Both the position numbers and the translations under genes were made by a program. The notes under the pieces were generated by a model. The model searched no databases, was not told the DNA's origin, and saw only the letters and a list, made by a program, of their open reading frames with translations. This document shows positions 1 to 45,392 of a DNA stretch of 64,000 bases, piece after piece. This stretch comes from Takakia lepidozioides (Eukaryota > Plantae > Bryophyta): NCBI GenBank assembly GCA_030704615.1, contig CM060731.1, positions 63,984,001 to 64,048,000 of the forward strand, read 5' to 3'. Position 1 is the stretch's first letter. Every line of letters begins with the position of its first letter.

Positions 1-1452
1 ACTGGGACCACATCGGTGCCTTCTCTTTCTGAGGCATCACGTCGTCAAGTGTTGGGGCAAGCAATGGATCTAAATTGCTTGACCTGGATTATCAGCTTGG
101 CTATGGCTGAACAATGAAGAGTGCGGAGTGCACTTCCCTTGATGGTCTCTCTGCCTACCAAGATGGTACAGGCAGTGAGTGGGGGCAAGCCGGTGAGGAC
201 CACGGGGTGTAGACATCCATGGCACACGTGGGAGGTGATTGAGGTTCGGAGGGAGTTGGCAGCCAAGGCGGTTGTGATGGATGAGGTGGGGATTCTTCTT
301 GGATTGAGGAGATCCTCAAGGATGAGATGATGGGGCAGGATGAGGCCTTGTCATTGACGGAGCAGGCAGGGAGTACTGCTCATGAGGTTGCGGCATAGCA
401 ACCATGGGACGCGTCCTCTACCTCTAAGTCTGCTGGACTTAAGGTTGCAGTTACGGAGGACAATTGGGAGCCTGACATTGGACCCATTGTCACTGGAGGA
501 GAGAGACGACGTATACGGCGGTTCCTGAGGCTTACAAGAATTGCTTTGCCTTCAGTTTGAAGGATTTGAGAAGGACGAGGAGATGGTGCCGGGATGGCAT
601 GCATCTGCCTTTTTGTGTATCTTGGCATCAGGAGGTCAGATTGGACCTACAACAGGGATGACTATAGACGGAGTGTCTGAGGACCCTGAGGCTATTGATG
701 AGCCAGGTGGTGCCAGAGGTATACATGAGAATTCGGTTGTGTTGGACTACCTCCGCACTGGAGACACGGTAGCTAGTGTGACTGCCAAGGAGAGGGATCG
801 GATCCTGCAACGAGCCAAGAGGTTCAAGTGGGAGGGGATACACCTGCTGCGAGTGTAGGAGGATGGTTGGGTGAGGATCGTCCCTCACCCAACAGAGCGT
901 GCACGGTTAGTGCGGCATGCCCATGAGGAGTTGGGGCATTTTGGAGTGCGACGCACTCATAATTTACTGCAGGGGCAATATTGATGGCGTGGTATGCACA
1001 TAGAGGTGCAACAGTTCATGGCTAGGTGCATGGTATGTGACAGGGTGCGTGCTTCATTCAACGCCTCTACACCACAGTTGCATCCTTTACCCATCATGGG
1101 ATTGGGCTACAAGTGGAGTCTTGACTTCGCAGGGCCGTTGCCATTGATGATGCGCCACCACAGATATGTGTTGGTGATGGTGGAGTACTTCTCCAAGTGG
1201 ATTGAGTTGGTTCCATTGCCTGACAAGGCTAGTGAGGGGGCTGCGTATGCATTCCTGGAGCGTGTGCTTAGCCGATTCAGTGCTCCAGCTGAGGTACTCA
1301 CGGACCAAGGGAGAGAGTTCTTGGGGGAGTTTTAGGCTTTGTGTGATAAAGCCTTGATAGACCACCGTACCACTTCTTGGGATCATCCTGAGGCCGATGG
1401 CTTGGCAAAGAAAGTGGTGCAGACGGTGAAGAGGGGTTTGCGCAAGTATGGC
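1..1452 (+). mobile_element. Degenerate, internally deleted second copy of the DNMT-bearing Ty3/gypsy element (DNMT C-terminus and linker joined to partial integrase; runs off the window start)
   Basis: 1-~568 aligns to 6373-~6940, and ~568-1452 aligns to ~8295-9180. The RT/RNase H interval is missing. Integrase motifs WSLDFAG and TDQG are retained but with stops (TGG>TAG, TGG>TGA, CAG>TAG). Confidence 0.93.
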
Positions 1453-2460: not shown

Positions 2461-2576
2461 TTCTTGCGGTGGATGCAGGTGCAGGTGCCCTGAGCCACTG
2501 GGATATGACCCTTAAACTGCAACAGGTGCCTACCCGTGTCACTATTAGAACTAGTAATAGAGCCTTATAGTGTCAC

Positions 2577-5234
2577 GTGGGGGAGGTACACATTGTGAGT
2601 GTCATCACGGAGTTACCCAGGGGTTTTGAGGGGAGTACGGCTACAGGCAGTAGCAGTGAGAGTGGGTTCACCAGACGAGGTGTTCATTTCAGACCACCTT
2701 CACCTCCACCCTCAACTAGTGCAGAGTCAGACACAGACTCAGAGGCTTCATCAACAGGTATGCAGTTTCATTCGCCATTGTTGTGGGACGACATGGAGGA
2801 GATGTATGGAGCTACCAAGGGGCCTCGTAGGTACTCTGGAGCTGTGGGCACAATCGAGTTGGATGACTTAATCCAGGAGTTCGACAGTTGGTGTGATTTG
2901 CAGCAGATGCGCAATCCACAGCTATTCACCCCATTCATGGCGTGGAAGGGACTGTTCCAGCATTTGGAAGGTCCGCCTATGGACGATTACCACGAGTTCA
3001 GGCGAGGACATGAAGCAGAGATTGAGGAGTGGAGGATGTATTGGTCACCTGACTACGTCTCCATTACTCGAGGCACGACGCGACCAGTAGCTGCATCAAT
3101 ACCAATATCTCCCACTACCAGCACTAGTAGTGGAACAAGTAGTGCCGGTACTTCTACAGGTGGTACCAGTTCAAAATGTGCTACTACTCCTCCTGCCACG
3201 ACTACAACACATGTGCCTAGATTCAACCCGGTGGTGGAGTTCTTCCAGGAGTTGCGGAAGAACTATCAAGGTGTACGGACAGAGAAGCTGCGAAGTTTGC
3301 AAGACTTCCAGCGCAAACCCAGTGAGAGCTTGCGAGAGGCCTACACTCGTATGAGGCGCTTGATAAGTGTGACCCAAGGGGTTACTGAAGCTCAGGCAAT
3401 CCAGTTTTGGTATGGAATTTTGGACAAGGAGCTCAGGAGAAGGGTGCGGGATGCAACCCTGTTACAAGCAGCCCAACCCACATTAGCAGATGTGTTTCTG
3501 CTGGCTGAGCGGATTGAGCTCAACATGGTGGAGGAGCGAGTTGTTACCATTGGGTTTGGCAAGGACATGCATGCACGAGGCGTAGCTGCCAGCCCACAGG
3601 CACAAGGGACTGCCCAACAGCGTGGTCAGGGGGGCAAGGTTTCCCAACCCAAGTTCCATGGAGCTTACAGGGGACCTCAGGTGCAGAGGCCCGTGGCATC
3701 TTTTGTAGGCCAACAGCAACCAGGGGTGATATGTTGGACATGTGGAGGACCCCATGTCAAGAGAGATTGCCCAGAGAGTGGCAAAAGGCCGGCACAAACA
3801 CAGCCTGCACAGTTGCAGTGTGGGCATTGTGGCAAGTATGGGCATGGAGATGCCCAGTGTTATGACTTCCATCCTGAGTTGCGCCCAGGCCAGTTCCAAG
3901 GGAACAATGGTGGCCGGGGGCGAGGTGGACCAGCCCAAAGAGGACGAGGTGGTCGGGCACGAGGTGCAGGCCAAGGGCAAGCTCAACATGGCCAAGGACG
4001 CGGAGGTCAGGGTGTTGACCAAGGCATGGCCAACCGGCTTCAGCAGCTAGAGCAGAGGCTCGCTGCCATGGCTACAGCTCAGGTGGTACCGGCTCCCAGG
4101 CGGGATGGTCCACCTCCTGCTCCTGAGGGAGGAGATATGGGAAGCATGGGATTCATGTGCGGAGCAGCACTACCACTAGAGCAGGTGAAGTCTGCTGCAG
4201 AGGTGACTCGAGGAGCAGCACGAGTTCCTGAGCCACGAGGTGTAGAGGTGGAGTTGGATACACAACGTGGGGAGGCAAGCCGTCAGGCGAGGCTGCCTCA
4301 GTCATTCACCTTGGCGGAGACAGTGTCAACGCCATCCATGGCACCTAGTTCTCGCCCGACTGTTACCGAGGCGGAGGTTTCTATGCCATTGTGGAGAGTT
4401 ACACGTGCAGCACTGACACCTGCTGCCAAGGCTAGTGCAGCCGGTGTGTTGTTGGGGGCAGCCACCTTTGTGTGTCAAGCCCCACTGTTCTCGGCAACCA
4501 TGATTGCGACGCCAGGGGTAAGACCAGCTGCAGTGTTCAGACTAGCAGCAACACTCTGTGAGAGTGGGGAGGTCACTTCATCTTCTGCGGAGTTACTGGA
4601 AGGTGTAGTGGCAGAGGGATCCTCGGATTTGAGGGTCAAGACTGCCACGGCTGCGCCATGGCAAGCTGCAGCTGCCAGGTTGACGGAGCTGCCAGCTAGG
4701 CCAGCCTTTGAGTGCGCCATGGTGACACCTGGAGTTGTCTTGTTAGACAACCAGGATGTCATTTTCTCTTTGAGTGGACCGGCAGGCAAGAAGTACCGGC
4801 CACTGCGGGTCTTGTTGGACTCGGGAGCTCAGCCACTGATGTTGGGCAGAGCTGCTATTGCAGGTTTGGGCCTCATGGAGGCGGATATGGAGCCTTGTCA
4901 TTTCCAGATACAGACATCTCTGGGAGGATCAGAGCATGCTCGGGGCATGACACGGCATCAGTTGGCCATTAGACTGCAGCCGGATCATCCTATCGATGGC
5001 TCAGTAATGCGAGCCAAGGCCATTGTGACAGATGCGGTCTCTTACGATGTCCTCATTGGTGGGGCAGTGTTATACCCCATGGGCTTCACCCTGGACTTTT
5101 GGGAGGAGTCAGCATTCTACAGGCCTGGATGGCAGTCAGGGGATGGTCGTCGTGCACAGCTCCCTGTGACATTCATTGGGGGTATTGCGGCTGCCCAACG
5201 GGCCAACACTAGCCGCCTTTACAGCTGTAGTTAG
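2577..5234 (+). CDS. gag: Gag-protease polyprotein
   Basis: Capsid-like LQDFQRKPSESLREAYTRM; Zn knuckles CWTCGGPHVKRDC and CGHCGKYGHGDAQC; RGG/Gln-rich tract; retropepsin VLLDSGA…YDVLIGG. First ATG at 2760. Confidence 0.9.
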   Translation: MGEVHIVSVITELPRGFEGSTATGSSSESGFTRRGVHFRPPSPPPSTSAESDTDSEASSTGMQFHSPLLWDDMEEMYGATKGPRRYSGAVGTIELDDLIQEFDSWCDLQQMRNPQLFTPFMAWKGLFQHLEGPPMDDYHEFRRGHEAEIEEWRMYWSPDYVSITRGTTRPVAASIPISPTTSTSSGTSSAGTSTGGTSSKCATTPPATTTTHVPRFNPVVEFFQELRKNYQGVRTEKLRSLQDFQRKPSESLREAYTRMRRLISVTQGVTEAQAIQFWYGILDKELRRRVRDATLLQAAQPTLADVFLLAERIELNMVEERVVTIGFGKDMHARGVAASPQAQGTAQQRGQGGKVSQPKFHGAYRGPQVQRPVASFVGQQQPGVICWTCGGPHVKRDCPESGKRPAQTQPAQLQCGHCGKYGHGDAQCYDFHPELRPGQFQGNNGGRGRGGPAQRGRGGRARGAGQGQAQHGQGRGGQGVDQGMANRLQQLEQRLAAMATAQVVPAPRRDGPPPAPEGGDMGSMGFMCGAALPLEQVKSAAEVTRGAARVPEPRGVEVELDTQRGEASRQARLPQSFTLAETVSTPSMAPSSRPTVTEAEVSMPLWRVTRAALTPAAKASAAGVLLGAATFVCQAPLFSATMIATPGVRPAAVFRLAATLCESGEVTSSSAELLEGVVAEGSSDLRVKTATAAPWQAAAARLTELPARPAFECAMVTPGVVLLDNQDVIFSLSGPAGKKYRPLRVLLDSGAQPLMLGRAAIAGLGLMEADMEPCHFQIQTSLGGSEHARGMTRHQLAIRLQPDHPIDGSVMRAKAIVTDAVSYDVLIGGAVLYPMGFTLDFWEESAFYRPGWQSGDGRRAQLPVTFIGGIAAAQRANTSRLYSCS

Positions 5235-6702
5235 TTGGCCTGGAGAGTTGCTGGAAGGCAATGCCCATGCAGAAGATGTGCCACCTCCAGCAGAGCAGGA
5301 TGACATGCATGGTATGGCGGAGTTGCCTGCCATGGTTGCTCACACTCCATTGTGGGGTACGAGCAAGGATTTGCAGCAGGTTGCTAATCGACGGGTGCAA
5401 CAAGCCTGGGTAGAGGCTTTTGTACCGTCAGGAGAGGAGGAGAGTGCGGGTATTGCACCAGGACCACCTCAGTTGTCACCATTGGATACCACACCTATTG
5501 TGTGGCAGTATCCGGATGAAGGCATTTGCCTTCTGGACTTGTTTGGCGGGATCAGCACCGGATTGGCTGCTGTGCTACAGGCAGGTGTGTGGGTAAGGCG
5601 TTACCTGTATGTGGAGAGGGATGAGACTGCACGACGCGTCTCACTGCGCCATGTTGCTCAGTTGGTACAGCAGTACCTTGCTTTGTTGCCAGTGTCTGCA
5701 GTTCGTGGATACCAACAAGCCTTGCCAGCAGACATTTCGTTGCTGGGGGCGCCGGATTTGGAGCAGGTTGGCTCCATTGATCTGGTAGTGGCAGGTTGGC
5801 CCTGCCAAGGGCATTCATCAGCCGGGCATGGCAATGGATTGCGAGACTCGAGGACGGGTCTGTTTTGGGAGATGGTGCGGATTTTGCGCCACTTGCAGCT
5901 TCATCAAGCTGTATCTCCAGCATACATCTTGGAGAATGTGCCACTGATGGGCGATTCTCGGGCCAGGGTGATGGCCAGTGTGCATCAAGTCCGGTCGTGG
6001 CTTGGGTCAGCAGTGCTGCTGGATGCAGCTGCAGTAGGATCACGGGCTCATCGTCCACGACTATGGTGGACTAACTTGATGCCACCCGCACTGCTCAAGC
6101 GTGCATTTGATGGGGTGCAGCGGCCAACACACCTCATAGTGGACAGCATTTTGGACACAGGGAGGCAGTCTCAACGTGTGAGACACGATGACCGTTCGCC
6201 TTTGGCAGTGGTCAACAGGGTGGGTCAACCACGAGCAGCATTACCTACACTGCTCAGCTTCCCAGGATCCCATGCTTTTTCGGGATGGTGGACCTGGCCT
6301 CTGTGGGATAGCCAGTTGCAACAGTTAGTGGAGCCTAATGCCGACGAGCGAGAGCGGGCTATGGGATTTTCCACTGGGACCACGGCGGTGCCTTCTCTTT
6401 CTGAGGCATCACGTCGTCAGGTGTTGGGGCAAGCAATGGATCTCAATTGCTTGACCTGGATTATCAGCTTGGCTATGGCTGAGCAACGTAGAGTGCGGAG
6501 TGCACTTCCCTTGACGGTCTCTCTGCCTACCGAGACGGTACAGGCAGCGAGTGGGGGCGAGGCGGTGAGGACCACGGGGTGTAGACATCCATGGCACACG
6601 TGGGAGGTGCTCGAGGTTCAGAGGGAGTTGGCAGCCAAGGCAGCTGTGATGGATGAGGTTGGGGATTCTTCTCGGGATGAGGAGGTTTCAATGATGAGAT
6701 GA
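5176..6702 (+). CDS. DNMT3-like C5-cytosine DNA methyltransferase domain inside the retrotransposon
   Basis: Motif I LDLFGGIS (~5530), II YVERD, IV VVAGWPCQ (catalytic PC, 5800-5805), VI LENV (ENV 5932-5940), VIII AHRPRLWWTNL, IX ERERAMGF, X RRQVLGQAMD. Linear motif order, no introns, overlaps the end of the gag ORF. Confidence 0.92.
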   Translation: MGVLRLPNGPTLAAFTAVVSWPGELLEGNAHAEDVPPPAEQDDMHGMAELPAMVAHTPLWGTSKDLQQVANRRVQQAWVEAFVPSGEEESAGIAPGPPQLSPLDTTPIVWQYPDEGICLLDLFGGISTGLAAVLQAGVWVRRYLYVERDETARRVSLRHVAQLVQQYLALLPVSAVRGYQQALPADISLLGAPDLEQVGSIDLVVAGWPCQGHSSAGHGNGLRDSRTGLFWEMVRILRHLQLHQAVSPAYILENVPLMGDSRARVMASVHQVRSWLGSAVLLDAAAVGSRAHRPRLWWTNLMPPALLKRAFDGVQRPTHLIVDSILDTGRQSQRVRHDDRSPLAVVNRVGQPRAALPTLLSFPGSHAFSGWWTWPLWDSQLQQLVEPNADERERAMGFSTGTTAVPSLSEASRRQVLGQAMDLNCLTWIISLAMAEQRRVRSALPLTVSLPTETVQAASGGEAVRTTGCRHPWHTWEVLEVQRELAAKAAVMDEVGDSSRDEEVSMMR

Positions 6703-6770
6703 TGGGGCAGGATGAGGCCTTGTCATTGACTGAGCAGGAAGGGAGTACTGCTCAAGAGGTTGCAGCATAG

Positions 6771-7969
6771 CAACCACGGGACGCGTCCTCTACCTCTAAG
6801 CCCACTGGACTTAAGGTTGCAGTTACGGAGGACAATTGGGAGCCTGACATTGGACCCATTGTCACCGGAGGAGAGAGACGACGTATACGGCGGTTCCTGA
6901 GGGCTTACAGGAATTGCTTTGCCTTCAGTTTGAAGGACTTGGGAGCACTGAAGGGTCAAGAGATCCGTATTGAGTTGGCCACTGACACGCCAATCTTTCG
7001 GAGACCCTATAGATACAGTGACATGGAGAGGTCTTTGATTCAGATGAGGACTCAAGATCTCTGGGAGGCAGGTTTGGTGGAGCTCTCTGGTGGAGAGTAT
7101 GCTTCAGCCACAGTGATGCCAGCCAAAAGGATGTCTATGGCAATTGGACGGAGAGACGTATGTGCGGTGATTACCGGCCTGTAAATCGTCAGACCAAGTC
7201 CGATAGGTATGCCATGCCGACACCTTTGATGCCATTGGGCATTCCAAGGTCTTTAGCACGTTGGATTTACGATCCGGATATCACCAGTTGCCGATCAAGG
7301 AGGCGGATAAGCAAAAGACGACATTTTGGGGGATCAATGAGCACGGGAAGGATTGCCTATACCAGTGGCGGTTCTTACCATTTGGGCTTAAAAACGCTCC
7401 GCTGAGTTTCAAAGAGTCATGGACAGGATTCTAGCAGGGGTGGAGTTTGCTCGGTGCTACATAGATGACATCATCATCTTTAGTGCTACGGTGGAGGAGC
7501 ATGAGAGACACCTTCAGGGGGTATTTGAGCGCTTGAGGGCGCACGGATTGAAGTTACATCCGGGAAAGTGCAAGTTTTTCCACAACCAGATTGAGTATCT
7601 GGGTCACATGATATATCCTGGAGGATTGGGGGTACAGCAGACTAAGTAGAGTCCATTGCACAGGTTCCACGCCCCACGGATGTGAGCCGAGTTCGAGCTT
7701 TCATGGGGTTAGCAAACTATTACAGACGGTTTGTTAAGGGATTTAGTGCCATTGCAAAGGCTCTAACCAAGCTAACCAAGGTGGACCAGGAGTGGCAGTG
7801 GGAAGATGAGCAAGAACAAGCTTTTCAAGAGCTCAAGGCGAGGTTGACCTCGGCGCCCATCTTGAGACGACCTATCAGGGGGCGTCTTTTCAGCTGCATA
7901 CAGATTGGAGCATGCTGGGGCTTGGAGCGGTGCTCACACAGGTGGATGATGAGGGAAGAGAGTTCGTAG
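6771..7969 (+). pseudogene. pol: Reverse transcriptase and connection domain of pol, broken by about 5 small indels
   Basis: Across frames: RRPYRYS, EYASATVMPAK, MCGDYRPVN, LDLRSGYHQL, PFGLKNA, YIDDIIIFS, KCKFF, YLGH, FMGLANYYRRFV. The frame is open from 6771 into the 6930 ORF. Confidence 0.93.
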
Positions 7970-9891
7970 TGGCTTATGCTAGCCGCTCGAACAATGTTGC
8001 AGAGTCTAAGTATAGCTCATATGAGGGAGAATGCTTAGCTGCAGTGTGGGCCGTGGCACACTTCAGGTGCTATCTATACGGCAATCTCTTCACCCTTGTC
8101 ACGGATCACCAACCACTCAAGTGGTTGATGGAGTCAGACAAGCTTACGGGGAAGCTTGCACGGTGGGCACTCATCCTTCAAGAGTATGACTTTCAGGTGG
8201 TGCATCGACCGGGTTTGGTCAATCGCAATGCAGATGGGTTGAGTCGCAATCCATGCACGAGCCAGCAGGATGACACTGGAGCTCGGTGGCATGGTGAGAC
8301 GGACGAGGAGATGGTGCCCGGATGGCATGCATCTGCATTTCTGTGTATCTTGGCAGCGGAAGGCCAGGTTGGACCTGCAACAGGGATGACTGTAGATCAA
8401 GTGTCTGAGGACCCTGAGGCCAGCAATGAGCAAGGTGGCGCCAAAGATATACATGAGGATTCAGTTGTGTTGGACTACCTCCGCACTGGAGACACTGCAG
8501 CCACTGTGACTGCCAAGGAGAGGGATCGGATCCTACAACGAGCCAAGAGGTTCAAGTGGGAGGGGACACACCTGCTCCGAGTGTGGGAGGATGGTCGAGT
8601 GAGGATTGTGCCTCACCCAACACAGCGGGCACGGTTAGTGCGGCATGCCCATGAGGAGTTGGGGCATTTTGGGGTGCGACGCACTCATAGTCTACTGCAG
8701 GGGCAGTATTGGTGGCGTGGTATGCACACAGAGGTGCAACAATTTGTGGCTAGGTGCATGGTGTGTGACAGGGTGCGTGCTTCATTCAACGCCCCTACTC
8801 CACAATTGCACCCTCTTCCGATCATGGGATTGGGCTACAGGTGGAGTCTTGACTTCGCAGGGCCGTTGCCACTGACCATGCGTCACAACAAGTACGTGTT
8901 GGTGATGGTGGAGCACTTCTCCAAGTGGATTGAATTGGTTCCATTGCCTGATAAGGCTAGTGAGGGAGCTGCGTATGCATTCTTGGATTGTGTGCTTAGC
9001 CGATTCGGTGCTCCAGCTGAGGTACTCACGGACCAAGGGAGAGAGTTCTTGGGGGAGTTTCAGGCTTTGTGTGACAAGGCCTTGATAGACCACCGCACCA
9101 CTTCTCGGGATCATCCTGAAGCCGATGGCTTGGCAGAGAGAGTTGTTCAGACAGTAAAGAGGGGTTTGCGCAAGTATGGCTTGCAGAAGGGACACCTAGG
9201 AGATTGGGACCTTCAGTTACCCTGGTTAGCCATGGGCTACAGGTTCAGCAAGCAAGCATCACTTGCCTCCTTCTCACCATACTTTCTTCTCTTTGGCCGA
9301 GAGCCGGATTTGCCTACATCCATTCGTAGAGAAGCTGCTACAGTTCTTAACCTTGACGATCCGGACATGTGGGCACGTGCATGTGAGCAGCGTGCAGAGT
9401 TGTTCAAGAGAGTCATGCCCATGGCTTTCGAGAACCTTGCCATTGCACAACACCGTGATACGTTGAGGTATGCTACCATACGTGGTGGGGGCTATCGTCC
9501 TGGGGTTCGGAGATTCAACCCTGGTGACTATGTCTATCTGCAGCAGACTGCTCCTACGACCCTGGATGTGACTGCAGGACGTGTTATTTTGAGGGTTCGA
9601 GAGGTCTTGCCCTCAGGCGTCTTGGTCTTGGAGGGTCGGGATGGCATAACTTGGAAGGACCATGTGCGTAATTGTGCGCCATGTCACCTTCCGAATGTCG
9701 ATGGCAGGATTGACCCAAACCTGGCAGTGGTATCTGCAGGTTTGAGGTGCATGTTGTGTGGGTCTGCTAAAGGGGCAGCCACCATGCTGGTGTGTGATCG
9801 ATGCTCTAGAGGTTGGCATATGGGATGCTTGACTCCACCTCTTGAGATGGTTCCGGATGGGGATTGGTTATGTCCACATTGCATTGGATAG
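7912..9891 (+). CDS. pol: RNase H - integrase - C-terminal PHD finger
   Basis: RNase H GLGAVLTQ, YEGECLA, TDHQPL, NADGLSR; integrase Zn site H-H/CMVC; DDE motifs WSLDFAG, TDQG, AERVVQT; C4HC3 PHD CMLC…CDRC…HMGC…WLCPHC at ~9748-9882. Confidence 0.95.
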   Translation: MLGLGAVLTQVDDEGREFVVAYASRSNNVAESKYSSYEGECLAAVWAVAHFRCYLYGNLFTLVTDHQPLKWLMESDKLTGKLARWALILQEYDFQVVHRPGLVNRNADGLSRNPCTSQQDDTGARWHGETDEEMVPGWHASAFLCILAAEGQVGPATGMTVDQVSEDPEASNEQGGAKDIHEDSVVLDYLRTGDTAATVTAKERDRILQRAKRFKWEGTHLLRVWEDGRVRIVPHPTQRARLVRHAHEELGHFGVRRTHSLLQGQYWWRGMHTEVQQFVARCMVCDRVRASFNAPTPQLHPLPIMGLGYRWSLDFAGPLPLTMRHNKYVLVMVEHFSKWIELVPLPDKASEGAAYAFLDCVLSRFGAPAEVLTDQGREFLGEFQALCDKALIDHRTTSRDHPEADGLAERVVQTVKRGLRKYGLQKGHLGDWDLQLPWLAMGYRFSKQASLASFSPYFLLFGREPDLPTSIRREAATVLNLDDPDMWARACEQRAELFKRVMPMAFENLAIAQHRDTLRYATIRGGGYRPGVRRFNPGDYVYLQQTAPTTLDVTAGRVILRVREVLPSGVLVLEGRDGITWKDHVRNCAPCHLPNVDGRIDPNLAVVSAGLRCMLCGSAKGAATMLVCDRCSRGWHMGCLTPPLEMVPDGDWLCPHCIG

Positions 9892-10151
9892 TGGGAGTGG
9901 ATACAACCATGGAAGGCTAACAAGAAACGCAAGGCCCAGCTACTAGGAGACCTTGAACACACGAGGTCCTGGCTCAAGTTCACAGATTGCAAGACGGCGA
10001 CTAACGATGGGGCTACTCTTGTACCCGACCTCTTGGTCTATAGAGTTTGAGTGCAATAGGGGCAGTGATAGAGGACTTAGTACGGATGTGGCTATTACAT
10101 CTTGTAGCTATCTGGAGGTAGAGGGACCTACCCACCAGCTAGGGGGGCGAT

Positions 10152-10679
10152 TGTGGTAGACTACTTTATTTTGCATATATGTGTGGTGTGGTTTGGACAG
10201 CGATGTAGTTGTGTAGCGATACGTATGCGCACGACAGGTGTCAAGTTAAATAAGCACATTGTGAAAACGACTAGAATAAAGCTAGTTATTTGTACTTAAC
10301 ACTTGGATTTAGGTCAAGTGTTAAGTCAGGTGTCAGGTTTAGTTTGACACCTGAACCGTCTTATCTTCACGAGAGCGGCAGTCGCGCAGCTCATCTCTCT
10401 CGAGTTGAGCCTGCGCGACCGAGCTCATTCATCGCTTCAGATCTGAATGTGCTTATGATGGGAGTGTAGGTTGTTGTGGGGTGGAGTCCCCATAGCTTGG
10501 GGTGCCCCTGGCTCGACTTCTGTTTTAACGAGTGATGCTGTTGGATTCATGTTGTTTCTTGTATGAACAGTGTGTTCTTAGCTTTTCTTATCATTGTGGC
10601 AGACTACTTTATTGTGCATATATGTGTGGTGTGGTTTGGACAGCGATGTAGTTGTGTAGCGATACGTATGCGCACGACA
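10152..10679 (+). repeat. Candidate 3' LTR (528 bp) bounded by two 85-bp direct repeats (10152-10236 and 10595-10679)
   Basis: Starts TGT just after the PPT (AGGGGGGCGAT) and ends ACA, where PPR-coding sequence begins abruptly. The two 85-mers differ at 2 positions. No 5' LTR is available to confirm the limits. Confidence 0.65.
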
Positions 10680-13300
10680 AAGGCCTAGAAGTTGGAAAAC
10701 AGGTGCACACTCACATTGTCCAAAGTGGATTCACGCCGAACGTTTTTCTACTCAACAACCTTGTCAACATGTATGTTAAGGGGAGCATCATGGATGATCA
10801 CCAAGTGTTCAACACAGAATGCCTCAACGATCTTTAATCACGTGGAATATAATGTTGGCAGGATTACCAAGCATGGGCGTGGTACGAATGCTTTGGAGAC
10901 CTGTGAGCAAATGCGCGAAGGGGTGAAGCCCAACCACATCGTGTTTGTATGTGTTTGCAATGCATGTGCAAGCCTGGAAAAGGGGAACGAGGTCCATGGT
11001 GACATCGGTCAAAGCTAGAATTGCACTGGATGTCATTCTGAACACTGCCCTGACCTGGACATGTATGCCAAATGTGGATGCATTGAGGATGCAAAGGGAG
11101 TTTTTGACACTATGGCTAAACGAGATGTGGTGTTGTGGAGTGCGATGCTTGCAGTGTATATTCAACAGGGACGTGGGATGGAGGCTTTGGAGACCTATGA
11201 TCCAATGATGGGGGAGGGGGTGAAGCCCGGCCACTTTGTGTGCATTTGCAATGCTTGTGCAAGCCTGGCAGCCCTGGACAAGGGCAAAGAGGTGCATGGG
11301 GATATCATCAAAGCTGGAATTGTACCAAATGTCATTCTGAACAATGCCCTGGCAGCTCTGGAAAAGGGGAAAGAGGTCCATGGCGACATCTTCAGAGCTG
11401 GAATTGTACCAAATGTCAGTCTGAACCATACCCTGGTGGACATGTATGCGAAATGTGGTGCATTGAGCCTGGACGAGGGCAAAGAGGTGCATGGGGTATC
11501 ATCAAAGCTGGAATTGTACCAAATGTCATTATGAACACTGCCCTGGCAGCTCTGGAAAAAGGGGAAAGAGGTCCATGGCGATCTTCAGAGCTGGAATTGT
11601 ACCAAATGTCATTCTGAACCATATCCTGGTGGACATGTATGCAAAATGTGGGTGCATTGAGCCCTGGACAAAGGCGAAGCGGTGCATGGGGTATCATCAA
11701 AGTGGAATTGTACCAAATGTCATTATGAACACTGCCCTGGCAGCTCTGGAAAAGGGGAAAGAGGTCCATGGCGACATCTTCAGAGCTGGAATTGTACCAA
11801 ATGTCATTCTAAACCATACCTTGGTGGACATGTTTGCAAAATGTGGGTGCAAAGGGATCTAGGATCTAGGATGCAAAGGGAGTGTTCGACACTATGGCTG
11901 AACGAGATGTGGTGTCGTGGAGTGCGATGCTTGCAAGGTATGCACGGCAGGGATGTGGGATGGAGGCTTTGGAGACCTATGAGCAAAGGATGGGGGAAGC
12001 ACATCATGTTTGTGTGCATTTGCAATGCTCGTGCAAGCCTGGCAGCCCTGGAGACGGGCAAGAGGTGCATGGGGATATCATCAAAGCTGGAATTGTGCCA
12101 AATGTCAATCTGAACACTGCCCTAGCAGCTTTGGAAAAGGGGAAAGAGGTCCATGGCGACATCTTCAGAGTTGGAATTGTATCAGATGTCATTCTGAACA
12201 ATACCCTAGTGAACATGTTTGCAAAATGTGGGTGCATCTAGGATGCAAAGGGAGTGTTCGACACTATGGCTGAACAACATGTGGTGTCGTGGAGTGCGAT
12301 GCTTGCAGGGTATGCATGGCAGGAAAGTGGGATGGAGGCTTTGGAGAGCTATGAGCAAATGATGGGGGAAGCACATCATGTTTGTGTGCATTTGCAATGC
12401 ATGTGCAAGCCTGGTAGCCGGCTTGGAGAAGGGCAAGAGGTGCATGGGGATATCATCAAAGCTGGAATTGTGCCAAATGTCAATCTGAACACTGCCCTGG
12501 CAGCTTTGGAAATGGGGAAAGATGTCCATGGCGACATCTTCAGAGTTGGAATTGTACCAGATGTCAATTCTGAACAATACCCTGGTGAACATGTTTGCAA
12601 AATGTGGGTGCATCTAGGATGCAAAGGGAGTGTTCGACACTATGGCTGAACGAGATGTGGTGTCGTGGAGTGTGATATGATGCGCTTGCAGGGTATGCAC
12701 AACAGGGATGTGGAATGGAGGCTTTGGAGACCTATGAGCAATGGAAGTACATCATGTTTGTGTGCATTTGCAATGCTTGTGCAAGCCTGGCAGCCCTGGA
12801 GAAGGGCAAGAGGTGCATGGGGATATCATCAAAGCTGGAATTGTGCCAAATGTCAATCTGAACACTGTCATAACAGCTTTGGAAATGGGGAAAGATGTGC
12901 ATGGCGACATCTTCAGAGCTGGAATTGCACCAGATGACATTCTGAACAATACCCTGGTGAACTTGTTTGCAAAATGTGGGTGCATCTAGGATGCAAAGGG
13001 AGTGTTCGACACTATGGCTGAACGAGATGTGGTGTTGTGGAGTGCGATATGATGTGCTTGAAGGGTATGCACAACAGGGATGTGGAATGGAGGCTTTGGA
13101 GACCTATGAGCAATGGAAGCACATCATGTTTGTGTGCATTTGCAAGCCTAGCAGCGGGCCTGGAGAAGGCAAAGAGATACATGGGGATATCATCAAAGTT
13201 GGAATTGTACCAAATGTTAATCTGAACACTGCCCTGGCAGCTTTGGAAAAGGGGAAAGAGGTCCACATGGCGACATCTTCAGAGCTGGAATTGTACCAAA
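10680..13300 (+). pseudogene. PLS-class PPR pseudogene expanded into a tandem array (~66-bp and ~375-bp units)
   Basis: Repeated ALEKGKEVHGDI-x-x-AGIVPNVILN and MYAKCG-x-IEDAKGVFD…RDVVSWSAM motifs, with many frameshifts and recurrent TAG stops. No E or DYW domain. Confidence 0.88.
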
Positions 13301-31221: not shown

Positions 31222-32892
31222 TTGGCAGCTAAGAATGGCCAGTCACGCAGGGTGGAAGAATTGAGACACGCACAATGTTCTGTTGGGCATCAGACTGGCA
31301 GCAGGAGTAGCACTTCAACCATCATCACTGCTTTTGGAAGACGCCCAAGAGAGGGAAAAAACAAGAGCTCTCCTTGTGTTCATTGGGATGTGAGGACACT
31401 ATGTGAGAAGGGACGACTGAAACAAGCGCTGCTGATCTTGCAGCAACCAGGCATTCGGCCAGCCAGCAATACTTATGTCTGTCTCTTGCAGGGGTGCATC
31501 AACTTGAAAGCCCTGGCAGAGGGAAAGCAGGTTCATGCCCACATTATCCAAAGTGGATTCAAGCCAAATGTTTTTCTTGTCAACACCATTATCAGTATGT
31601 ATGCCAAGTGTGGCAGTATCACGGATGCACGCCAAGTGTTTGACAAAATGTCTGAACGAAATATGTTTACTTGGACTGTGATGATGGCAGGCTATGCCAA
31701 GCACGGCCATGCTGAGGATGCTTTCAAAATCTATGATCAATTGCAACAGGAAGGGGTGATGCTTGACAGGGTCACTTTTACTACTGTTCTGAACGCCTGC
31801 GCCAGCCTTGGAGCCCTAGAAAAAGGTAAGGAGGTTCATACTGATATTGGCAAGAGTGGAATTGTGCCAGACATCATTCTGGAGAATACCCTTGTCGACA
31901 TGTATGCCAAATGTGGGAGCATAGACGATGCGCGTGAAGTATTCAAGCATATGGCTAAACGAGATGTGATCTCATGGAACACGATGATTGCAGGATGTGC
32001 CCAACATGGGCGAGCTAGGGAAGTCCTCCAACTTTTTGAACAATTACGACAAGAAGGTTTGAAGCCTGATAGTATCACCTTCATTTCTGTACTCTCTGTA
32101 TGTAGCCATTCAGGCCTACTTGATGAAGGTCGTCACTACTTCAATTCCATTATTCGAGATCATAGCCTCACACCTACAGTGGAGCATGTTGGTTGCATGG
32201 TGGACCTTCTTGGCCGTGCGGGGTGTCTCCATGAGGCAGTGGACTTCATTAAAAAAATGCCATTTCAACCTAGTGTTGTTGCAGCATGGAAGGCTTTGCT
32301 CGGTGCCTGTAAAGTTCACGGTGATGTGCAGCTAGCAGAACGTGTGGCAAAATGCGTTCTTGAGTTGGATCCACAGAACACTGCAGCTTTTGTGCTGCTA
32401 TCAAATATCTATGCTGCAGCTGGGAGGTGGGATGATAAAGCAAAGGTGAGAAAAATGATGGATATCAGGGGGGTGAAAAAGGAGGCAGGGCGCAGCTGCA
32501 TTGAGGTCAACAACCAGGTGCATGGGTTTGTGGTCGAAGATAAATTGCACCCACAAATTAAGGAAATCCATGCTGAGTTGCGGAAATTATCTGGGCAGAT
32601 GAAGGAGGCAGGGTATGTCCCTGACACTCGGTGCGTATTGCTAGATGTCAAGAACGAGCAGAAGGAATTTTCCCTTTCCTACCACAGCGAGAAGTTGGCC
32701 ATTGGTTTTGGCCTTATTAGCACGGCCCCAGGGACACCCATTCGTGTCATCAAGAATCTTCGGGTCTGCGATGACTGCCACACTGCCACCAAGCTCATCT
32801 CAAAGATTGCTGGGCGGGAAATTGTTCTACGTGATACCAACCGATTTCACCACTTTAAAGATGGGGTTTGTTCGTGTGGGGATTATTGGTGA
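31222..32892 (+). CDS. PLS-E-DYW pentatricopeptide repeat protein (organellar C-to-U RNA editing factor); true start probably upstream
   Basis: PLS motifs, E domains, deaminase motifs HSEKLA and CDDCH, terminal CSCGDYW. The ORF is uninterrupted, but there is no in-frame ATG before the first PPR motifs. Confidence 0.95.
   Translation: MAAKNGQSRRVEELRHAQCSVGHQTGSRSSTSTIITAFGRRPREGKNKSSPCVHWDVRTLCEKGRLKQALLILQQPGIRPASNTYVCLLQGCINLKALAEGKQVHAHIIQSGFKPNVFLVNTIISMYAKCGSITDARQVFDKMSERNMFTWTVMMAGYAKHGHAEDAFKIYDQLQQEGVMLDRVTFTTVLNACASLGALEKGKEVHTDIGKSGIVPDIILENTLVDMYAKCGSIDDAREVFKHMAKRDVISWNTMIAGCAQHGRAREVLQLFEQLRQEGLKPDSITFISVLSVCSHSGLLDEGRHYFNSIIRDHSLTPTVEHVGCMVDLLGRAGCLHEAVDFIKKMPFQPSVVAAWKALLGACKVHGDVQLAERVAKCVLELDPQNTAAFVLLSNIYAAAGRWDDKAKVRKMMDIRGVKKEAGRSCIEVNNQVHGFVVEDKLHPQIKEIHAELRKLSGQMKEAGYVPDTRCVLLDVKNEQKEFSLSYHSEKLAIGFGLISTAPGTPIRVIKNLRVCDDCHTATKLISKIAGREIVLRDTNRFHHFKDGVCSCGDYW

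Positions 32893-42429: not shown

Positions 42430-45392
<2,963 letters not shown>

Follow-up and report, generated by a model that had tools for sequence, protein, structure and literature searches.

A conserved in-frame stop codon between methyltransferase and reverse transcriptase in a bryophyte Gypsy lineage, probably used for readthrough

The Ty3/Gypsy-type element that lies across 2571–9891 of the 64,000-nt stretch of DNA analysed here (the window) carries a single TAG between a DNMT3-like methyltransferase (DNMT) and the reverse transcriptase (RT), and a stop codon stands at the homologous site in all 17 related loci retrieved that keep this junction. The conserved stop is a real feature, and represents an already-known strategy in a new form: readthrough between Gag and pol is known, as are the Gypsy-Dnmt3 elements of Klebsormidium. 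Judged from the sequence, the TAG is very probably a programmed readthrough site that would yield abundant Gag-PR-DNMT and rare RT-RH-IN.

The domain order of the element is Gag-PR-DNMT3-like-RT-RH-IN-PHD, and the underlying Ty3/Gypsy order, Gag-PR-RT-RH-IN, is present in the window and intact in a related locus, L013. The features concerned are the following.

1..1452, + strand: second, decayed copy, with the DNMT end, the linker, TAGCAACCA at 396–404 and part of the integrase
2571..5234, + strand: Gag and aspartic protease (LLDSGA), open from stop to stop
5527..6486, + strand: C5 cytosine methyltransferase domain, DNMT3-like (PF00145, E 6e-13)
6487..6767, + strand: linker 3' of the DNMT, broken near 6687 in the window copy
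6768..6770, + strand: TAG, candidate readthrough codon between DNMT linker and RT, in the RT frame
6771..6776, + strand: CAACCA, matching the TMV-type CARYYA 3' context
6781..6796, + strand: 5' arm of a predicted long-range stem, beginning 10 nt after the stop
6868..6884, + strand: 3' arm of the predicted stem, over the GGERRR codons at the start of the RT region
6831..7912, + strand: reverse transcriptase region, in several broken frames (tblastn with L013 ORF2)
7810..9891, + strand: RNase H, integrase and C-terminal PHD finger, in an open frame
10150–10236 and 10593–10679, + strand: 87-nt direct repeat, 3' of the coding region

Gag was called in the window from zinc-knuckle-like Cys/His motifs and a weak, below-cut-off match to PF03732. 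The methyltransferase retains the motifs LFGG, GWPCQ, ENV, RAHRPR and LGQAMD, and its best solved (PDB) relative is DNMT3A (E 2.5e-10; the PC, ENV and RxR motifs align). Identities of 52–75% to Calypogeia and Marchantia proteins, together with a PPR-DYW gene at 31222–32889, suggest a bryophyte host. Between protease and DNMT, at about 5170–5260, the window copy changes frame, at a place where its relatives are continuous.

As the sequence-only reading had stated, the TAG lies in the RT frame, which continues from it as QPRDASS...FRRPYRYS, and is followed directly by CAACCA; the same nine bases recur in the second copy. That copy is internally deleted for most of RT-RH – it matches 6373–6944 and then 8295–9180 – and the two copies, both decayed, agree at 534 of 573 nt (93%). 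A separate 1-nt gap upstream of the stop was also found in each, near 287 and near 6685–6687. The further statement that both copies end the DNMT frame early at ATG AGA TGA stood for the main copy, which ends at the TGA at 6700–6702, and failed for the other, which ends already at 115–117, before that point. Across both strands of the window, CARYYA directly follows 10 of 5355 stop triplets; for an estimate of chance the two copies count as one event, and the evidence against chance comes from the relatives. The break near 6687 is not common to all copies: in 4/4 runs (from four studies, under two organism labels) the contigs are there one base longer or shorter than the window. For the family to which the window element belongs, the state of the stop site can be read completely only from X7, a 2173-nt contig that spans 6400–7400 and must keep TAGCAACCA, since none of its 12 substitutions falls at 6745–6847; in runs X1, X5 and X9, where the listing of variants was cut short, the stop may vary.

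Relatives were sought more widely. A metagenome scan returned at least 29 loci, 16 of which keep the DNMT–RT junction; left out were L023–L029 (seven weak matches), L018–L022 (integrase-type sequence next to the DNMT on its 3' side) and L005 (no junction). Genome contigs gave five loci, namely L047, which was used, and four weak Streptomyces matches. The resulting set of 17 junction loci (16 from metagenomes plus L047) may include the same locus assembled twice in two cases, L009/L010 and L016/L017. Viral contigs were tried as a further source and rejected: they gave 17 loci with weak, apparently phage-type methyltransferase matches only, and no RT relative was found in them.

Aligned at the homologous site, these related elements carry a stop in 17/17 cases (14 TAG, 3 TAA) and a sense codon – the CAG that the sequence-only reading had considered included – in none (0/17). 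Fourteen loci, here called peat-moss-type because those of them placed in the tree group with a Sphagnum fallax model, read stop-CAACCC-ATG, with TAA in three of them; the sequence is TAG-CAGTTA in L012 and L013 and TAG-CAATCA in L047. UAG-CARYYA is thus complete in both window copies, L012, L013 and L047, and departs at +9 in the 14 peat-moss-type loci, so that across lineages positions +4 to +9 stay inside CARYYA or one base off it. The methyltransferases of L013 and L047 are 49–51% identical to that of the window, and that of L008 is 68% identical; the ORF2 proteins of L013 and L047 are 91% identical to each other. Independent evidence for the stop accordingly amounts to about three lineages plus the window.

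The downstream coding frame is in register with the upstream one, as readthrough requires. L013 has 1369 + 1047 open codons, and L047 at least 1162 + 1047, in each case in register around one TAG; in these intact relatives Gag-PR-DNMT occupies one frame, and RT-RH-IN-PHD the same frame beyond the stop. Several peat-moss-type loci are decayed: L003 and L006 have an earlier stop, L007, L011 and L015 are shifted by 1 nt, and in L016 and L017 the element breaks off immediately past the junction. L047 is contig CADCWO010000201.1, an intact eukaryote-type DNMT-Gypsy element in an assembly labelled uncultured cyanobacterium; it is likely to be stray eukaryotic DNA, and UniRef lists its ORF2 as a cyanobacterial reverse transcriptase.

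The context itself behaves as a nucleotide signal. The second codon past the stop is CCA, TTA or TCA, encoding Pro, Leu or Ser (three of the four YYA codons), and YYA codons make up 5–7% of the codons in the elements compared here. Two of the six context positions are different between L013 and L047, both of which still match CARYYA, and over the 45 nt before the stop only 17–20 of 45 positions match between the window, L008 and L013. Since YYA is kept while both the encoded residue and the flanking sequence vary, we regard the stop context as a signal at the nucleotide level. The identification of UAG-CARYYA as the TMV-type leaky context agrees with the consensus UAG-CAR-YYA given in the available part of PMC3159437, and, according to the portion of PMC2754532 at hand, the TMV context in plants also allows readthrough of UAA, with Tyr inserted in tobacco.

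A second possible signal lies downstream. In folds of the 120 nt taken from the stop onward, a stem begins 10–12 nt 3' of the stop in both main clades; the fold z is -2.56 for the window, -2.73 for L013 and -3.96 for L047, and -1.0 and -0.9 for L008 and L012. In a duplex test whose windows were picked after the folds had been seen, the rank against other codon positions was 49/2376 for the window, 14/2354 for L013, 0/2147 for L047, 17/1244 for L008 and 131/2537 (5.2%) for L002, and the observed stem energy was reached, per 1000 synonymous redraws, by 5 (window), 59 (L013), 0 (L047) and 14 (L008). The arms differ in sequence between the two main clades, where they occupy similar places in a different register. 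Across the window and the peat-moss group 96% of cells pair, as against 65–76% for slid partners, and covariation comprises one double change in 10 pairs, a value reached by 91 of 500 shuffles. A real downstream stem is plausible, with moderate support from these predictions. In alphaviruses readthrough is stimulated by extended stems, with spacers of 7–9 nt reported in the available part of Firth et al. (PMC3159437).

Under programmed readthrough, most ribosomes would stop at the TAG and release Gag-PR-DNMT, and a minority would decode UAG and continue into the full Gag-PR-DNMT-RT-RH-IN-PHD polyprotein, presumably stimulated by CARYYA and the stem. The protease would then cut these products, and the combination of readthrough and cutting would place protease and methyltransferase at the level of the capsid protein, with RT and IN rare. 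Readthrough accounts for the kept frame, for the context and for the absence of a usable AUG: there is no ATG in any frame from -30 to +60 around the stop at 6768, and the first in-frame ATG past the stop lies 84 codons downstream in the window and 116 codons downstream in L013 and L047, inside the RT. Counting against it is the peat-moss-type CAACCC, one base off the consensus and followed by an in-frame ATG.

That ATG, two codons past the stop in 14/14 peat-moss-type loci and four codons past it in L012, with GTG at the corresponding place in L013 and L047, speaks for the idea that RT-RH-IN is made as a separate protein without Gag fusion, through ribosome restart past the stop or from an internal promoter. 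We consider this unlikely as a general explanation: with the nearest in-frame ATG 84–116 codons away in the window, L013 and L047, restart lacks a suitable codon there, and neither route explains the frame kept across the stop or the recurrence of CARYYA. RT and IN, moreover, usually reach particles fused to Gag. Within the peat-moss group, restart at the ATG two codons past the stop is possible. For Tca2, the accessible portion of the literature describes an internal promoter at the junction, and also indicates that local context need not be the mechanism at its in-frame gag-pol stop.

Somewhat less likely still is Ogre-like splicing that would take the stop out of some of the RNA, perhaps with the AG of the TAG as acceptor. 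A T-rich run precedes the TAG at the peat-moss-type site, and four Marchantia and Sphagnum gene models (P0006, P0009, P0011 and P0036) do join DNMT to RT, bridging the stop by predicted junctions; yet these are inconsistent, four models having four different junctions, whereas nine other Marchantia models end at one site to within two residues (P0002, P0003, P0007, P0008, P0012, P0076/77, P0083, P0084 and P0088). The linker is 50–58% GC, with only 16–35% T before the TAG, and no joints were seen in the contigs of 4/4 runs, which as contigs bear on the question only weakly. No Ogre-type non-coding intron separates the two ORFs, which abut across one codon, and splicing would supply no reason for CARYYA.

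The preferred reading, readthrough, is also consistent with the protein databases. Many entries are Gag-PR-DNMT proteins of about 1230–1450 aa, mostly ending 78–164 aa past the last DNMT motif and including Marchantia and Calypogeia entries; RT-RH-IN-PHD is found as separate proteins, about 1040 aa long, in clusters with as many as 226 members, and none of 72 further members listed from seven such clusters (at most 15 per larger cluster) exceeds 1099 aa. Gag-PR-DNMT models of about 1280 aa are annotated as hypothetical host genes. A midpoint-rooted FastTree phylogeny of 69 DNMT sequences, with four short ones left out, unites the window and the bryophyte elements with the L012/L013 group in one clade (local support 0.99). 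DNMT–RT joins inside this clade occur in eukaryotic gene models only, each skipping the site at a different point, whereas the continuous DNMT-RT proteins P0037, P0038, P0050 and P0051 fall outside it. RT similarity also brought up Closterium models whose linker is consistent and continuous.

Those continuous relatives, together with the decay of both window copies, are what could speak for the TAG being an ordinary disabling mutation of dead copies, or the mark of a non-autonomous family borrowing RT in trans – a reading that is highly improbable, given that the stop-bearing clade includes none of the continuous forms, that the stop is common to lineages only 49–68% identical in DNMT, that ORF2 is open for 1047 codons past it in L013 and L047, and that no protein of 2238–5000 aa more than 48% identical to the Marchantia DNMT was found (in itself weak evidence). 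Shared decay as the cause of the TAG was rejected, the relatives' frames being open on both sides of the stop; the earlier caveat of a shared disabling change from CAG to TAG is untenable for frames otherwise open over about 2400 codons.

Because more distant relatives encode DNMT-RT unbroken, the stop looks like one ancient gain, and the simplest reading of the midpoint-rooted tree would place it at the base of the stop-bearing clade or slightly earlier. P0043, outside the clade, ends 118 aa past the motif, according to its protein record only. A Coleochaete scutata transcript, P0116, has a 1083-aa RT-RH-IN-PHD ORF, called complete and without DNMT, from which it appears that the DNMT/RT split may predate land plants. 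A second large clade (L018–L022 and P0052–P0065) has a related DNMT between RT and integrase, in a single open frame that reaches 3600 aa; among its members is one attributed to Haematococcus lacustris. This arrangement is not described in the parts of the literature available.

The closest known system is KnitGypsy-Dnmt3 of Klebsormidium nitens (de Mendoza et al. 2018, PMC5890265), which, in the available part of that paper, likewise combines Gypsy domains with a Dnmt3-related methyltransferase in a polyprotein. The bryophyte elements share with it a C5 methyltransferase that carries catalytic motifs and forms part of the polyprotein (PF00145, DNMT3A match), and the K. nitens RT-RH protein P0148 is 45% identical to the RT of L013. 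The DIRS-like repeat layout described there is paralleled by L010, an integrase-carrying element with split direct repeats in the order A-coding-B-A-B (932–1273, 9494–9606, 9606–9947 and 9949–10061). In the window only the two 87-nt, B-like repeats occur, likely the B repeats of such a split-direct-repeat end; an upstream A copy was not found in 1450–2600, nor was a flanking terminal-repeat pair around the coding region. Paired repeats of 307–342 nt are present in L002 and L010, and absent from L013. The main text of PMC5890265, as far as available, assigns the DNMT to the ORF of the Pol polyprotein, implying an uninterrupted DNMT–RT frame, whereas an in-frame stop separates the two here, in the 17 junction loci. 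The words 'readthrough' and 'Marchantia' have no occurrences in that main text.

Other comparisons concern the stop. Among plant elements, RIRE2 has a gag-pol stop, and the stop of SIRE1 stands in a CARYYA context. SIRE1, from soybean, is likewise a plant LTR retroelement using stop-codon suppression, but in the portions of its description available it is a Copia element with the stop between pol and an env-like gene. Similarly limited accounts of MuLV, Tj1, Tosmo1–3, Tcry1, Tca2 and VdLTRE5 describe, as here, one in-frame stop and a high ratio of structural to enzymatic products, and state that transposition of Tj1 needs its stop; in these elements, however, the stop comes immediately after Gag, with the protease downstream of it, whereas here protease and methyltransferase both precede the stop, and the context is CARYYA. 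Ogre (Tat) elements are likewise split after GAG-PROT and before RT-RH-INT, but, in the available part of PMC6317226, by a spliced intron averaging 274 bp, where the two frames here abut. With TMV and the alphavirus and furovirus cases (PMC3159437 and PMC2754532, each as far as available), the bryophyte elements share UAG-CARYYA and a polymerase past the stop, and a long-loop 3' stem like the viral ones is predicted for them a few bases beyond it; they differ in being retrotransposons, in a spacer of 10–12 nt rather than 7–9 nt, in one lineage with CAACCC and in the absence of a 5' CAA codon.

No report of a DNMT-bearing Gypsy element in bryophytes, or of a stop placed after protease and methyltransferase, was found in a literature search that covered few subscription papers; recent literature, in the parts available, mentions streptophyte DNMT3-bearing retrotransposons in passing only. 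The elements offer a candidate natural case of CARYYA readthrough in plant nuclear sequences, in which the signal exists in several versions that diverged independently, and the family occurs in Marchantia. The stop also explains existing annotations, in which the elements figure as Gag-DNMT 'genes' some 1280 aa long or are given invented introns across the junction.

What methyltransferases do for the retrotransposons that captured them is treated as unsettled in PMC5890265 (Discussion). From where the stop lies, DNMT is predicted at the level of Gag rather than RT, which would fit methylation that is dense or acts in trans better than a helper function coupled to RT. As a speculation that we think less probable than its alternatives taken together, a recoding site might have moved behind a captured DNMT3 in an ancient Gypsy lineage, bringing methyltransferase to about the number of capsid subunits per particle; the enzyme might methylate new cDNA before integration, or host chromatin in trans, with the PHD finger on the rare integrase picking the site and CARYYA plus stem setting the dose. 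If this were true, the element would write its own epigenetic state.

The window contains other features besides the element. A degenerate tandem array of PPR-like DNA at 10679–13300, with units of about 190 and 380 nt, resembles the 31.5–32.1 kb part of a PPR-E-DYW gene of the RNA-editing type, which lies at 31222–32889 on the + strand. A frame with an alliinase EGF-like domain lies at 44778–45392 on the - strand.
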